Below, piece by piece: positions 57,001-63,000 of a stretch of 64,000 nt of DNA. Numbering within the stretch: position 1 is the stretch's first letter; every line of letters starts with the position of its first letter. The stretch lies in NCBI RefSeq assembly GCF_057098645.1, contig NZ_CM169472.1, one strand, 5' to 3'. Made by a program: the position numbers.

Positions 57001-60000
57001 TCCAAAAAGGTGGAAGGGCAGAGATTTGCCATCATTATTCCGCTGTTTATAGGACTTGCCATAATATACCTCACGATGAACCATTAATTAATAGAATGCT
57101 GGTCATGACCACTGGTATAGACAGCAATCAGAATTTAACACCATCGCTGGAAATTTTAGCCCTAACTGTCCCCCCCAGGTTACCGGTGCTGCGACTTAAA
57201 TTAACGTCCTGGGCTAATAAATTGTGCCTGAGATGGTCTCTGGCACAATTTCACCCTATATATCTGAACGGATCTATCAAAAATCGCTCATCAGTAACTC
57301 CCCTGAGCGGTTTAATGTCGCTCCTTACTGAAAAAACACTGCAATCTTGTTAAACATCGTCGGATCGGACTGATTACGCTGCACTTTCACCACATCTTCC
57401 AGCTTATCGATTTGGCTTATCATCTGCTCCAGACGCTGGTCGTCATTGACCAGTAGCCAGATATGGCTTTTGTCGCTGTCCTGAATCGGCAGACAAAGAA
57501 TGCCTTCAACGTTAAAAGCGCGGCGGGCAAAAAGGCCACAAACGTGGGTCATTACGCCCGGATGGTTGCGAACGGTGAGTTCCAGAATCACGTTGTCATG
57601 AGTTGTGTTTTGCATGGCTTATTCCCCCACCATTTCTGTATTCGCCGCACCTGGCGGCACCATCGGGTACACTTTTTCTTCGGCATCAATGCGCACATGG
57701 ATCAGCGCCGGACCAGGGCGATTGATGATTTCCTGCAATGCAGCCTGCGGATCGGCTTCGTTATTCAAATCACAGGTTTCGAGGCCGAATCCGGCGGCAA
57801 TCTGCATAAAGTTGATTTTTCCCGGATAGGTAGCGGCAAAAACGCCCTGCTTGTAGAACAGACTCTGTTGCTGATGCACCAGCCCCAGCGCTTCGTTGTT
57901 CATCAGAATGATTTTAACATCCAGCTGGTTTTCGCTGGCGGTCGCCATCTCCTGAATATTCATCATCAGGCTGCCATCGCCGGAGAAACACAACACTTTG
58001 CGATCCGGGTTCGCCAGCGCCGCGCCAATCGCCGCAGGCAGGCCAAAACCCATCGTGCCCAGCCCGCCGGAGGTCAGCCACTGGCGTGGGCGATTGAGCG
58101 GATAAGCCTGCGCCGTCCACATCTGATGCTGACCCACATCGGTGGTGATAATCGCATTGTCATCGACACAGGCGGCAACGGCGTTGATCAGGCCGTAATG
58201 GCTTAACGGATCGCACGCTTTCGGGATTGGACACGGGAATTCGCGCTGCAAATCCGCTACCAACTGGTGCCACTCTGCACGCGGTTGCGCTTCCACCTGC
58301 GGGATCAGCTGCGCCAGCACGTCATCAACATCCGCCTGAATCGCTACGTGCGGCTGCTTGATTTTACCCAGCTCTGCGCGGTCGATATCGACATGAATAA
58401 TTTTGGCATTCGGGCAGAACTGCTCGGTTTTGCCAATCGCCCGGTCATCAAAACGCGCACCGAGCACAATCAACAAATCCGCCTCCTGCAAAATATAGTT
58501 GGTGCTGCGCACACCGTGCATCCCCAACATACCCAGCGACAACGGATGCGCTTTTGGCAACATGCCCAGCGCCATTAAAGTCATTGTGGTAGGCAGCTGC
58601 GCTTTCTCCGCCAGTTCACGCACTCTCGCAGGCGCATTGATCACACCACCGCCCAGATAAAGCACCGGGCGTTTGGCAGCATTAATCATTGCCGCTGCGT
58701 CACGAATGCTTTCTTCGCTAAAGGCGGGCGCGACGGCTTTTTCTGCCACCGCGGGCTGTGCTTCAATCTCAAAAACGGCCGTTTGCACATCCTTAGGAAT
58801 GTCTATCCACACCGGGCCAGGGCGGCCTGATTGCGCAATACGGAAGGCATCGCTCATGACCTGCGGGAGTTCTTCGATATGTCTGACCAGATAGTTGTGT
58901 TTGGTGATGGGGATAGAGATGCCGTAGGTGTCGACTTCCTGGAAGGCGTCAGTGCCGATCATTGAGGCGGGAACCTGACCAGTGATGCAAATCAGCGGGA
59001 TGGAGTCCAGCCGCGCATCAGCAATGGCGGTCACCAGGTTAGTCGCCCCCGGTCCGCTACAGGCCATACAGACCGCCGGTTTACCGTCGGTGCGCGCCAT
59101 TCCCTGAGCGATAAACCCCGCGCCCTGTTCATGGCGAGCCAGAATATGGCGGATTTGCGTGCTTTGGCTTAAGGCATCGTAAACAGGCAGGATAGAACCG
59201 CCCGGAATGCCCGTCACAATCTTAATGCCCTGCTGTTCCAGGAAATGAACGATAAATTCTGCGCCGGTAAAGCGCTTACGCGTCGATGATGTGCCCGAAC
59301 TTGCCATGCTCCAGTCCTTTTCTTCTGGGCCGACTTTCCGGGAGGTGCTTAAACGAAAAACCCCGCCCGGTTTGCGCCGGCGGGGTTTTGGAATCGTGTG
59401 TTGTTCCAGTCCCTACGGCGCATTGCCGACGACCACCACCACACGCACGACGACCACTGCGGCGGATGGCGCAGTTGGTAGTAGTTTTGCGTTGAGCATG
59501 GAAGTAGTCATTGGGGACCTTGTTGGTTTTGTGTTTAACAATATTTATACAAGCACAGCTTTACAGGGGAGACAATGGAAAATTTTTCAGCAAGGGAAAA
59601 TTGAGGGGTTGATCACGTTTTGTACTGTACTGCAGGTAACAAAAAACCCCGCCGGAGCGAGGTTTCGTCAGCCGCCCGCGGCTGGTAACCGCAAAGCACA
59701 CTGTATTATGTCAACACAGAAAGTATACGTGTTCCGCGCAAAACGCGCAATTTCGGCACGAATTTTGACGTATTTAGTGCATAGTTGAGTATCGATCACA
59801 GTTTGCGTTTTGTCCAAATATTACTGTTTATTTATACAGCAAGCTTCTATAATATCACTGTACGCAATGTGTTATGCGGGGGCCGCATCGTTACCCGGCG
59901 CACTAAGTCCTGGCTGAAACGGGTGGTGCCGTCAGCGCCTTAACCCCGCGTGAGCACACTGTGTTATGTCAACGAGCACAACGTTTCTCCTTGAGATACC

Positions 60001-63000
60001 GCGTGCACAACAGCTGGCAACAGGCAGCGGAAAGGTACGTCAGCTGGCAGTGCTCCTGAACCACAGGAGACGCGTATGAGCCTGGTGGATATCGCCATTC
60101 TTATCCTCAAACTCATTGTTGCAGCACTGCAACTGCTTGATGCTGTTCTGAAATACCTGAAGTAATTCAGATTCAAGTCGCACTAAAGGGGAGCGGGTAA
60201 CCGCTCCCATTTTATATTTAGCGTGTGGGTTGGTGTCGGATGCGATGCTGACGCATCTTATCCGACCTACCATCCCTCCCGGCAACATTTATTGCCGCTT
60301 TTGTTTACATATTCTGCCGCTAAACAATTCCCCATTCCTGGCGTATATCTGGCTAACATTTATCAATGTGATAGATTCCTCTCCCGCATTTATGGGAATG
60401 CGTAGTGACTTATTCTAATTATTTTTATAAAAGCATCCGTGATAATGAAAAGGCATAGAAACATCAATTTGTTATTGATGTTGGTATTACTCGTGGCCGT
60501 CGGTCAGATGGCGCAAACCATTTATATTCCAGCTATTGCCGATATGGCGCGCGATCTCAACGTTCGTGAAGGGGCGGTGCAGAGCGTAATGGGCGCTTAT
60601 CTGCTGACTTACGGTGTCTCACAGCTGTTTTATGGCCCGATTTCCGACCGTGTGGGTCGCCGACCGGTGATCCTCGTCGGAATGTCCATTTTTATGCTGG
60701 CAACGCTGGTCGCGATCACGACCTCCAGTTTGACAGTATTGATTGCCGCCAGCGCGATGCAGGGGATGGGCACCGGCGTTGGCGGCGTAATGGCGCGTAC
60801 TTTGCCGCGTGATTTATATGAACGGACACAGTTGCGCCACGCTAACAGCCTGTTAAACATGGGAATTCTTGTCAGTCCGTTGCTCGCACCGCTAATCGGC
60901 GGTCTGCTGGATACGATGTGGAACTGGCGCGCCTGTTATCTCTTTTTGTTGGTACTTTGTGCCGGTGTGACCTTCAGTATGGCCCGCTGGATGCCGGAAA
61001 CGCGTCCGGTCGACGCACCGCGCACGCGCCTGCTTACCAGTTATAAAACGCTTTTCGGTAACAGCGGTTTTAACTGTTATTTGCTGATGCTGATTGGCGG
61101 TCTGGCCGGGATTGCCGCCTTTGAAGCCTGCTCCGGCGTGCTGATGGGCGCGGTGTTAGGGCTGAGCAGTATGACGGTCAGTATTTTGTTTATTCTGCCG
61201 ATTCCGGCGGCATTTTTTGGGGCATGGTTTGCCGGACGTCCTAATAAACGCTTCTCAACGTTGATGTGGCAGTCGGTTATCTGCTGCCTGCTGGCTGGCT
61301 TACTGATGTGGATCCCCGACTGGTTTGGCGTGATGAATGTCTGGACGCTGCTCGTTCCCGCCGCGCTGTTCTTTTTCGGTGCCGGGATGCTGTTTCCGCT
61401 GGCGACCAGCGGCGCGATGGAGCCGTTCCCTTTCCTGGCGGGCACGGCTGGCGCGCTGGTCGGCGGTCTACAAAACATTGGTTCCGGCGTGCTGGCGTCG
61501 CTCTCTGCGATGTTGCCGCAAACCGGTCAGGGCAGCCTGGGGTTGTTGATGACCTTAATGGGATTGTTGATCGTGCTGTGCTGGCTACCGCTGGCGACGC
61601 GGATGTCGCATCAGGGGCAGCCCGTTTAAGCTCACGTCACCGCAGCATCGTCATCAGCTCCATGGGAGAACGATGCTGCTTTATCAGATCACGCATCACC
61701 CGCATATGCGGCGCAGAGTAAGAATAAAACGCCTGATAGCCCGCACAAAGCACGCTGTCTGGCGTCTCCTCCCGAGCGTGCGGACACAGCAGATGCCAGT
61801 CGCACGCCTGGCAGCCACGGCGCGGTTGCGGGTTTTCGCTGCCACACAATTTTTGTAATGTGGCGTCAAAAAGCTCAATCGAGATACGACTGATATCTGC
61901 CCGCACCCAACACTCAAACAGGGCAATTAAAAATTTCCCCCACAGCTCTGCTGTCACCGAAGCGGCCGTCATATCGCCCCGGTCATCAAATTCAAGATGG
62001 GGAATAAGCTGTACGGAGCGGATGCCCCGTTGTTTGAAATTGTGATAAAAATCGGCAGGTTGCAGAGCATCCTTGTACTCTACAACCAGTTTATGCCTGT
62101 CCTCTTCAGCATCAATGACCTGACTTCCTGTCATGCGACTCTCTCAATAAATACGATAAGTTGATGTATATGCGTTACAGCAAACAGTATTGCGAGAGAT
62201 AACACCGCGAGGGAGATCAAAAATTTGTCACGGACTACGTGAAATTGGGAAAAATCGCTATTCGTGACATCCATTAAATTGCGATTACGAGTGTAGTGCC
62301 AGAGGATCAGCGCCACGATGGCGAGGATGCCAATCGAAATCCAGAATAACATGCCCGCCTGGTGCCAGTTGTGTTTGATAGCCAACGCCATCAACGCGCC
62401 GTAGCCCAGCATGGTACGAAACCACGCCAGTGATGTACGCTCCGGCTGCAGCCCTGGGTCGGCAATGCGTCTGGCTTTGCGGCTATCCGGCATACAACAC
62501 CAGTCCCATAACGATCACTGCTACGACCATCAATATTAAGCTGATGATTAATAAGCTGTTGGTGTAGGGCAGGTCCTCTTTCAGACGCATCGCTTTTTCA
62601 TTGCGTAACCAGCGCAAGTAGCCATACATCGCTAACCCGCCGGAAAACAGACACAACAACAACGCCAGCAGTTCGCGAATGACGGGCGTGGCGAAATCTG
62701 GCGCAAGTTGATCAAGCCCAACCCCCGCCGCCAGAAATCCTAGTGCAGTACGGATCCACGCCAGAAAAGTACGCTCATTAGCCAGCGAGAAGCGGTAATC
62801 AGGCGCTTCTCCGAGGCGGGAAATTTTCATTGTTGCTCCTTTGCAATTTCACTAACGCTCTACCTTTAGCGGTTTTTTTTAAGAATTTCGTCCGCCCGTT
62901 TCCTGATATGCTTTTGCCATCCGCTACAAGGAGGTCAGATGGGTATCATAGCGCAAAATAAAATCAGTTCATTGGGCATGCTATTCGGTGCCATCGCTTT

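Follow-up and report, generated by a model that had tools for sequence, protein, structure and literature searches.

What does a 64-kb stretch of enterobacterial chromosome (NZ_CM169472.1; hereafter the window) encode around a single LexA box that is straddled by two copies of a short direct repeat and lies upstream of a reading frame of 29 codons? The answer is almost certainly tisB/istR-1, the chromosomal type I toxin–antitoxin module of E. coli, in an O157:H7-type genome, and none of the observations speaks against this reading. This module is already known; it is among the best-characterised type I toxin–antitoxin systems and is the textbook example of ribosome standby. A preliminary description of the window had proposed an intact, conserved tisB/istR SOS toxin locus, and most of that proposal holds. 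The placement of the antitoxin gene, the meaning of the repeat, the operator allele and the distribution of the module among E. coli genomes are considered below.

Identity and layout of the locus

The 701 bp at the locus are 100% identical to O157:H7/O145 chromosomes that carry an annotated tisB, and the region is collinear with K-12, where istR-1, istR-2 and tisB are all annotated, at ~99% nucleotide identity (18 single-base differences across 741 aligned bp, minor overall and including changes in the terminator loop and tail). These alignments and the family models passed by both toxin and sRNA bear out the intact SOS toxin locus of the preliminary description, and its proposed comparison with the K-12 ivbL-tisB-emrD region recovers the TisB reading frame. 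The window shares with K-12 the placement (ivbL-ilvB / istR / LexA box / tisAB / REP / ysdE / emrD), the orientation and the spacing of the elements. It is from this near-identity that we infer the probable function of the window's locus.

The tisB coding sequence occupies 60076..60165 on the plus strand, stop codon included, with its ATG at 60076 and a Shine-Dalgarno GGAG at 60066-60069; the 29-aa frame had been correctly recognised earlier, with coordinates one base too low (60075-60164). Its product, MSLVDIAILILKLIVAALQLLDAVLKYLK, passes the Pfam family PF13939 (37.6 bits against a cut-off of 25) and, over residues 1-29 of 29 in each case, the NCBIfam models NF011340 (69.9 against 53) and TIGR04459 (61.5 against 38). 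It agrees with the K-12 protein at 28 of 29 residues, the sole difference being N2S, for which the window has the commoner allele. K-12 TisB inserts into the inner membrane, depolarises it and is toxic upon expression (PMC4147584, PMC6690012), and the window's TisB is predicted to be a membrane toxin of the same kind. The tisA (ysdA) reading frame of the ORF list (59966..60079, plus strand) specifies 37 aa that matched no Pfam or NCBIfam family, and the toxin encoded by tisAB is published to be TisB and not TisA (PMC2577331).

The tisAB promoter has a -10 hexamer TATAAT at 59848..59853 (plus strand), the same as in K-12. Using the position of this hexamer, the published RNA length of 359 nt (PMC2577331) and the published +1, +42 and +106 forms (PMC6690012), we place the primary mRNA (the +1 form, ~359 nt) at 59860..60218 on the plus strand, since a start at ~59860 fits a 359-nt RNA finishing in the terminator U-tract (PMC2577331). 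The +42 processing site would then lie at ~59901 and the end of the +106 RNase III product at ~59965. The intrinsic terminator hairpin, found by both terminator scan and inverted-repeat analysis at 60189..60208 (plus strand), reads GGGAGCGG-GTAA-CCGCTCCC followed by ATTTTATATT.

The preliminary description expected istR in the interval from the LexA box to tisB; the gene instead lies upstream of the box, at 59641-59780 of the minus strand, divergent from tisAB, with the LexA box at 59822-59841 shared between the minus-strand istR and the plus-strand tisB. A covariance-model search, the check proposed for istR, gives a match to Rfam RF01400 at 145 bits against a gathering score of 45 (E = 2e-31), spanning 59641-59770 (minus strand) and the full model (positions 1-130 of 130), and the whole-window search returns the same result. 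IstR-2, a predicted LexA-controlled sRNA of 140 nt that contains IstR-1, is delimited at 59641..59780 (minus strand) by this match and by the K-12 ncRNA annotation b4616, from which its 5' end at 59780 was transferred via alignment. The predicted sRNA antitoxin IstR-1 is likewise transferred from K-12 to 59641..59715 (minus strand); the K-12 RefSeq annotation is of a 73-nt form ending at 59713, and the 75-nt form ending at 59715 is adopted here. Its minimum-free-energy fold has a 12-nt unpaired 5' tail followed by two stem-loops, of which the second is the terminator, and the three substitutions separating the window from K-12 inside the IstR helices all preserve the pairs. This intrinsic terminator, recovered by terminator scan at 59641..59667 (minus strand) as a GC-rich hairpin followed by U6, has its stem at 59658-59646 ahead of TTTTTT and corresponds to the last hairpin of the Rfam model.

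Promoter-like hexamers stand at the right distances from the K-12-mapped 5' ends of both IstR forms. For IstR-2, the promoter scan finds TGGACA-N17-GATACT at 59788..59816 (minus strand), the -10 of which ends 7 nt ahead of the transferred 5' end at 59780. For IstR-1, a putative constitutive promoter TTGCGC-N17-TATACT, read from the sequence at 59722..59750 (minus strand), ends 6 nt before 59715; it is a weak match (8/12) that falls below the promoter-scan listing.

The LexA operator and its lineage-linked allele

The LexA box, TACTGTTTATTTATACAGCA, lies at 59822..59841 (unstranded), exactly where the preliminary description had put it. Recovered by pattern scan, it is the sole match in the 64 kb to TACTG(TA)5CAGTA when at most 3 mismatches are allowed, a pattern with 0 matches in 100 shuffles. 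It overlaps the -35/spacer region of the tisAB promoter and precedes the istR-2 -35 by 6 nt, and among the enterobacterial loci examined the orthologous boxes do not shift in relative position. A predicted box of the form CTG-N10-CAG at the tisAB promoter points, at the level of sequence, to SOS control, and LexA control of tisB is published (PMC9040746).

The window's operator region departs from that of K-12 by a T-to-C change at 59840, which turns CAGTA into CAGCA, and by an A-to-G change at 59843, the one base altered between operator and -10. This raises the possibility that the window has the same module with weaker LexA binding in the O157/O55/O145 lineage through the two changes at 59840 and 59843, so that tisAB and istR-2 would be leakier or induced earlier than in K-12. 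The altered operator base is at a consensus position, and in other genera the orthologous boxes usually carry T at the equivalent of 59840; the CAGCA allele is a lineage-linked minority among complete E. coli genomes (446 of 5,426), and 322 of these 446 have the exact O157 55-mer haplotype. Moreover, the heterology index of the K-12 tisB box is described as the lowest of any LexA-controlled gene, with slow LexA dissociation (PMC9040746), which leaves room for an operator change to matter. Set against this are the intact CTG and CAG core triplets and their intact spacing, the position of the changed base outside these triplets, and the boxes of other species that also end in CAGCA or CAGTG, which suggest that the position tolerates change. 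We consider such a shifted set-point unlikely and favor a module regulated as in K-12. Three haplotypes are seen in the operator region: CAGTAAAC, CAGCAAAC and CAGCAAGC.

It is rather improbable, by our estimate, that the derived operator allele of O157:H7/O55:H7/O145 lowers LexA affinity at what is the tightest-described SOS operator of E. coli and so shifts the DNA-damage threshold for TisB-dependent dormancy. Were it to do so, the threshold would be shifted in Shiga-toxin-producing strains, in which SOS also triggers the Stx prophages.

Distribution among E. coli genomes

The conservation claimed by the preliminary description holds between K-12 and O157 and across the loci from other genera described below; it does not extend to all E. 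coli, since 1,060 of the 5,426 complete genomes, those being B2-type, are missing the whole tisB/istR module. This absence from B2-type genomes is already published. A further 201 genomes have the module split by an IS, namely ISKox3 inserted in the operator. The empty site in B2-type genomes has its left junction at ~59590, with partial similarity continuing to ~59640, and its right junction at ~60275; these junctions were read by eye, a MAFFT global alignment having misplaced the right one. The filler of ~150 bp showed no Rfam match and no convincing ORF, and no replacement gene was found in it.

Such losses show that the module is dispensable in nature, and TisB residue 2 of the window is unlike that of K-12, both of which would be compatible with a decaying relic that is present yet non-functional in the window's strain. 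This reading is very improbable: the two promoters and two terminators, the core of the operator, the Shine-Dalgarno, the ORF and the pairing are all intact, and Ser2 is the majority TisB allele (3,354 genomes) to which the Asn2 of K-12 is the minority alternative, with Ser or Gly at this residue in many other genera. A module capable of functioning as in K-12 is the preferred interpretation. The B2-type absence, the 201 IS-split loci, the lineage-linked LexA-box variant and the minority status of the K-12 TisB are useful background for studies of how clinical lineages persist.

The direct repeat as IstR-1 pairing region and target

The two motif copies that the preliminary description had placed at about 59691-59719 and 59952-59979, flanking the LexA box, are a 21-nt direct repeat at 59695-59715 and 59953-59973, both inside those ranges. 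The copies are identical at 20 of 21 positions and lie 258 bp apart with the LexA box in between; dinucleotide shuffling yields 0 matches to the repeat in 100 trials, even with 3 mismatches allowed. Noted originally without interpretation, the two copies are both partners of the IstR-1/tisAB RNA duplex. Copy 1 (AGCACACTGTATTATGTCAAC on the DNA) is the 5' pairing region of IstR-1 (59695..59715, minus strand), and the sRNA carries its reverse complement, GUUGACAUAAUACAGUGUGCU. Copy 2 (AGCACACTGTGTTATGTCAAC) is the target of IstR-1 in the tisAB 5' UTR (59953..59973, plus strand), ends 102 nt ahead of the tisB AUG, and is published as a single-stranded ribosome standby site (PMC4147584, PMC6690012, PMC2577331). 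The IstR pairing region is unchanged from K-12, and the one base that differs from the K-12 tisAB 5' UTR, at 59974, is immediately beyond the target.

The predicted duplex has 21 contiguous base pairs, including one G·U, in line with the published complementarity of 21-22 nt (PMC4147584; PMC2577331). The seed duplex has an energy of -35.6 kcal/mol, as against -13.8 ± 2.3 for 500 shuffled seeds. This seed-only energy was used in place of unconstrained folding of full-length IstR-1 with the whole mRNA, which was rejected because it produced an artefactual long duplex inseparable from shuffles (-78 against -56.8 ± 4.5, with a shuffle minimum of -76.1).

The pairing also leaves a signature across genera. 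The pattern used to retrieve cross-species loci leaves out the pairing region, and the 42 loci so obtained (window and K-12 included), from more than 12 enterobacterial genera, all have the IstR body first, followed by LexA box, target and TisB ORF. The istR gathering score is passed by 12 of 12 enterobacterial loci tested. Five pattern matches in haloarchaea and Holophagaceae, which have neither a LexA box nor a TisB ORF, were set aside as chance, and the istR model had no match in the three haloarchaeal loci tested. Paired cells make up 98.3% of the total over the 21 distinct seed/target pairs, as compared to 20-48% when the partner is slid. Seven duplex positions vary: two change on both sides from U-A to C-G (13 cells) and five vary as G·U wobbles alone, giving a covariation score reached by 0 of 500 shuffles. 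In 14 of the 42 loci one duplex position is occupied by an A·C mismatch; hence, full 21-bp pairing is not family-wide. One-sided differences fall at five G·U-compatible and two incompatible positions, which are too few independent events for standalone statistics.

That the repeat might instead be a DNA-level element, either a duplicated protein-binding site or the remnant of a duplication, gains superficial appeal from the resemblance of direct repeats around a repressor site to paired operator-like sites, but it can be dismissed as having next to no probability, because copy 1 lies in a minus-strand sRNA and copy 2 in a plus-strand mRNA, making the transcripts complementary, because five of the seven varying positions differ solely in the G·U-compatible direction and the other two have changed on both sides across genera, and because published genetic and biochemical work shows that IstR-1 pairs, and RNase III cuts, at the site (PMC4147584, PMC6690012, PMC2577331). 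For K-12 it is in effect already refuted.

With the repeat read as an RNA–RNA pair, for which the analysis covered the complementarity and its conservation, the antitoxin of the window would act by base pairing. In K-12, IstR-1 pairing, RNase III cleavage and the S1-dependent standby block have been shown experimentally (PMC4147584; PMC6690012; PMC2577331), and the window's module would be expected to work likewise. The single LexA operator between the divergent promoters would repress both tisAB on the plus strand and istR-2 on the minus strand, while IstR-1 would be made constitutively from its own promoter within istR-2. The primary tisAB mRNA would be translationally inert until loss of its first 41 nt exposes the single-stranded standby site, which lies upstream of the structured tisB RBS by ~100 nt and on which a 30S subunit could preload via ribosomal protein S1. 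IstR-1 would pair with exactly this site through its 5' 21 nt and block standby, and RNase III would cut the duplex to leave the inactive +106 mRNA. Upon heavy DNA damage, LexA would be cleaved and tisAB mRNA would come to exceed IstR-1; the 29-aa TisB would then enter the inner membrane and collapse the proton motive force and ATP, favoring dormancy and persistence. Thermodynamic folding places the tisB RBS in structure in the +1, +42 and +106 forms (pairing probability ~0.8). The mean pairing probability of the standby site is 0.68 in the +1 form against 0.57 in the +42 form; as this reproduces the published opening weakly, the standby-site folds are given no evidential use.

The locus also carries a lesson for annotation. 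Size-filtered ORF calling misses a 29-aa toxin, as the preliminary description rightly stated in calling the locus invisible to the ORF track; the RefSeq O157 record nevertheless annotates tisB (WP_000060506.1), and it is the sRNA antitoxin that this record omits. With the toxin missed and the sRNA unannotated, a reader of sequence alone can misplace istR and fail to recognise a direct repeat straddling divergent promoters as an sRNA–target pair.

Among other E. coli type I systems, dinQ/agrB, zorO/orzO and shoB/ohsC share the gene arrangement: the toxin is small and hydrophobic, its 5' UTR is long, and a divergent sRNA, like IstR-1, pairs far upstream of the RBS. Their mRNAs, like tisAB, are processed into an active form and cleaved by RNase III (PMC4147584). 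Of these, dinQ is also LexA-controlled, as is tisAB. Toxin and sRNA alike have unrelated sequences in those systems, and the window matches the TisB and istR models specifically. The hok/sok-type systems differ as well: Sok, a true cis-antisense RNA, overlaps the mok leader and acts via translational coupling, whereas IstR-1 has a separate gene and the standby site that it blocks is distant, and processing of the hok mRNA takes place at the 3' end rather than, as in tisAB, at the 5' end (PMC4147584).

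Identity and layout of the tisB/istR locus

The region holds an intact tisB/istR locus, as the preliminary description had it; O157 identity, K-12 collinearity and the family models for istR and TisB all agree on this. Over a 701-bp query (59560-60260), many E. coli O157:H7 and O145 chromosomes match at 100% identity, and RefSeq annotates tisB in them. Alignment to K-12 MG1655 gives ~99% identity with zero indels, and the annotated order there (ivbL, istR as IstR-1 and IstR-2 on the minus strand, tisB, ysdE, emrD) matches that of the window. As a textbook system carried by a well-sequenced lineage, the locus is already known.

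The toxin is specified by a 29-aa plus-strand ORF (MSLVDIAILILKLIVAALQLLDAVLKYLK) running from the ATG at 60076 to the TAA ending at 60165; the frame had been recognized, but its earlier coordinates (60075-60164) were one base too low. TisB is recognized above threshold, along its full length, by Pfam PF13939 and by two NCBIfam equivalog models; the same searches matched no protein family to tisA (59966-60079). The antitoxin RNA is recovered as a full-length match to the istR covariance model (Rfam RF01400; 59641-59770, minus strand), scoring 145 bits against a gathering threshold of 45. K-12 annotation transferred through the alignment places IstR-2 at 59641-59780 and IstR-1 at 59641-59713, or 59641-59715 as the 75-nt form, both on the minus strand. 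Both the model match and the transfer therefore place istR on the far side of the LexA box from tisB, upstream of the box, with transcription directed away from the toxin gene; it had been expected between the box and tisB. Promoter-like hexamers TGGACA-N17-GATACT, whose 3' end lies 7 nt before 59780 on the minus strand, fit the IstR-2 5' end, and a candidate IstR-1 promoter picked out by visual inspection, TTGCGC-N17-TATACT, stops 6 nt short of 59715 on the same strand. Both RNAs share a terminator composed of a GC hairpin followed by U6 (59667-59641, minus). The ilvB attenuator terminator (59352-59389), which follows the ivbL leader (59413-59511, minus), has a near-identical 16-mer, AAC(G/A)AAAAACCCCGCC, in common with the istR terminator (59638-59658), probably through convergence of two minus-strand intrinsic terminators.

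The locus had also been described as invisible to the ORF track. This needs qualifying: the O157 RefSeq record NZ_AP018488.1 carries a tisB CDS and lacks an istR ncRNA feature, whereas the curated K-12 record NC_000913.3 has both IstR-1 and IstR-2. Hence, it is the antitoxin and not the toxin that routine annotation misses.

The tisAB promoter (plus strand) has a perfect TATAAT -10 element at 59848-59853, its -35 and spacer being covered by the LexA box. With a start inferred near 59860, the transcript would end in the U-tract after a terminator hairpin at 60189-60208, and its length would agree with the published 359 nt (PMC2577331). The +42 form would begin at ~59901, within the published uxaA-antisense 20-mer (59885-59904), and the +106 end would fall at ~59965, within the IstR duplex; both positions agree with the processing and RNase III products described earlier (PMC6690012). 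The segments published as antisense to uxaA (GCATCGTTACCCGGCGCACT, 59885-59904) and dinD (CAACTGCTTGATGCTG, 60130-60145) are exactly conserved in this O157-type window. The target motif recurs a third time, in part, as CAATGTGTTATG at 59865-59876 (11/12 identity to 59957-59968). This places it within the 41 nt that are cleaved from the 5' end of the primary transcript when the active +42 form is made, where it might contribute to the inhibitory 5' structure or serve as a decoy for IstR.

The 21-nt repeat as an sRNA-target pair

The two motif copies noted on either side of the LexA box are real, but their meaning had been missed. They form a 21-nt direct repeat, AGCACACTGT(A/G)TTATGTCAAC, at 59695-59715 and 59953-59973, with 20/21 identity and a separation of 258 bp; no such repeat is expected by chance even at three mismatches. 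The first copy belongs to a minus-strand RNA and the second to a plus-strand mRNA, which makes the two transcripts complementary: IstR-1 pairs through its 5' 21 nt (GUUGACAUAAUACAGUGUGCU) with tisAB mRNA at 59953-59973, and where the DNA copies differ (A/G) the RNAs form a G·U pair, so that the helix is continuous. The duplex is predicted at -35.6 kcal/mol, while 500 shuffled seeds gave -13.8 ± 2.3 (minimum -23.4). The target site stops 102 nt short of the tisB AUG, and the repeat together with this distance is the published IstR-1/tisAB arrangement. Earlier work described 21 nt of complementarity in the tisAB 5' UTR and decay that depends on RNase III (PMC4147584), a 22-mer, AGCACACTGTGTTATGTCAACA, "antisense to the istR sequences" (PMC2577331), and a single-stranded ribosome standby site, dependent on S1 and some 100 nt ahead of the sequestered RBS, that IstR-1 blocks (PMC6690012).

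For a comparison across species, one genome of each species was searched for istR loci with a nucleotide pattern drawn from the two IstR-1 stem-loops only, so that the pairing region did not bias retrieval. This yielded 51 loci, 46 of them from Enterobacteriaceae, namely Citrobacter, Enterobacter, Kosakonia, Salmonella, Leclercia, Lelliottia, Phytobacter, Siccibacter, Superficieibacter, Trabulsiella, Pluralibacter, Huaxiibacter and Pseudenterobacter. The other five (haloarchaea and a Holophagaceae MAG), with neither LexA box nor TisB ORF, are chance matches; the istR gathering score was passed by 12/12 enterobacterial loci tested versus 0/3 haloarchaeal ones. The order IstR body, LexA box (116-129 nt away), target site and TisB-like ORF is kept in 42 loci, a set that takes in the window and K-12.

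Standard pairs fill 98.3% of cells across 21 distinct seed/target combinations; sliding the partner by 1-3 columns lowers this to 20-48%. At two duplex positions both partners have changed (U-A to C-G, 13 cells), at five a single partner varies, through G·U only, and the observed covariation score was reached by none of 500 shuffles. Pair 18/33 of the seed/target alignment A3 (window 59970/59712) has a target C opposite an IstR A in 14/42 loci, among them Kosakonia, Phytobacter, Siccibacter and Superficieibacter, which leaves an uninterrupted duplex of 17 bp. As read from these alignments, the pattern supports selection on IstR-1/tisAB RNA-RNA complementarity, with few independent events among related sequences.

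The LexA operator and the distribution of the module

The LexA box TACTGTTTATTTATACAGCA lies exactly where it had been reported, at 59822-59841, and nothing else in the 64 kb comes within three mismatches of the LexA consensus (0 in 100 shuffles). Relative to K-12, the window changes CAGTA to CAGCA at 59840, an allele carried by 446/5,426 genomes, and A to G at 59843, between the box and the -10. The two sites define three right-end haplotypes: CAGTAAAC, the K-12 and majority allele; CAGCAAGC, matched exactly in 322 genomes (O157:H7, O55:H7, O145); and CAGCAAAC, in 124. The K-12 tisB operator is described as having the lowest heterology index in the SOS regulon (PMC9040746). The operator variant might shift the SOS threshold in this lineage, the one reading here that would be new, but such a shift is unlikely to be large. 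At many of the cross-species loci from Enterobacter, Lelliottia, Leclercia and Citrobacter youngae (L007, L013, L019, L022, L026, L036, L039, L044 and others), another LexA-like box, TACTG-N10-CAGTG, follows the main one by ~28 nt and overlaps the expected tisAB start; LexA operators may be arranged in tandem in these genera. The corresponding position in E. coli lacks a CAG.

The claim of conservation holds in part. In a set of 5,426 complete E. coli genomes, the flanks are found in 5,420 but the module in only 4,360; exactly 1,060 carry an empty-site allele that is missing the whole istR-LexA box-tisAB-REP module, with ~59590-60274 swapped for ~150 bp of unrelated filler (E. coli D8, 620-800) showing no Rfam match and no convincing ORF. 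As they include ST131 and clone D i14, these genomes are of B2-type lineages, and the count corroborates at larger scale the published absence from phylogroup B2, alongside E. albertii and clade V (PMC9040746). Separately, 201 complete genomes share an exact junction at which the ISL3-family element ISKox3 is inserted inside the tisAB LexA-box spacer (window 59828-59835; E. coli 675SK2, 1180-2500), with an 8-bp target duplication, TTATTTAT; the operator is split and the tisAB -35 displaced.

Other differences from K-12 and neighbouring features

At 60080, TisB Asn2 of K-12 is Ser in the window, the majority allele (3,354 genomes). Three changes within IstR helices (59672, 59677, 59741) keep their pairs, turning U-A or C-G to U·G, and one adjoining the target (59974) turns A-U to G·U and matters for IstR-2 only. 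Further changes fall in the tisAB terminator loop and tail. Judged by sequence, none of the differences disrupts an element.

Downstream of the tisAB terminator lies a single REP (repetitive extragenic palindrome; 60229-60267), with only weak, sub-threshold matches to Rfam naRNA4 (26.9 bits versus 59.5). It is followed by the 24-aa small-protein gene ysdE (60289-60363, minus), whose first codon in RefSeq is ATA, with an in-frame TTG one codon upstream. At the very start of the window (8-95, plus) is a match to the C4 antisense RNA (Rfam RF01695; 74.3 bits versus gathering 45), a family typical of the immunity regions of P1/P7-like and other prophages.
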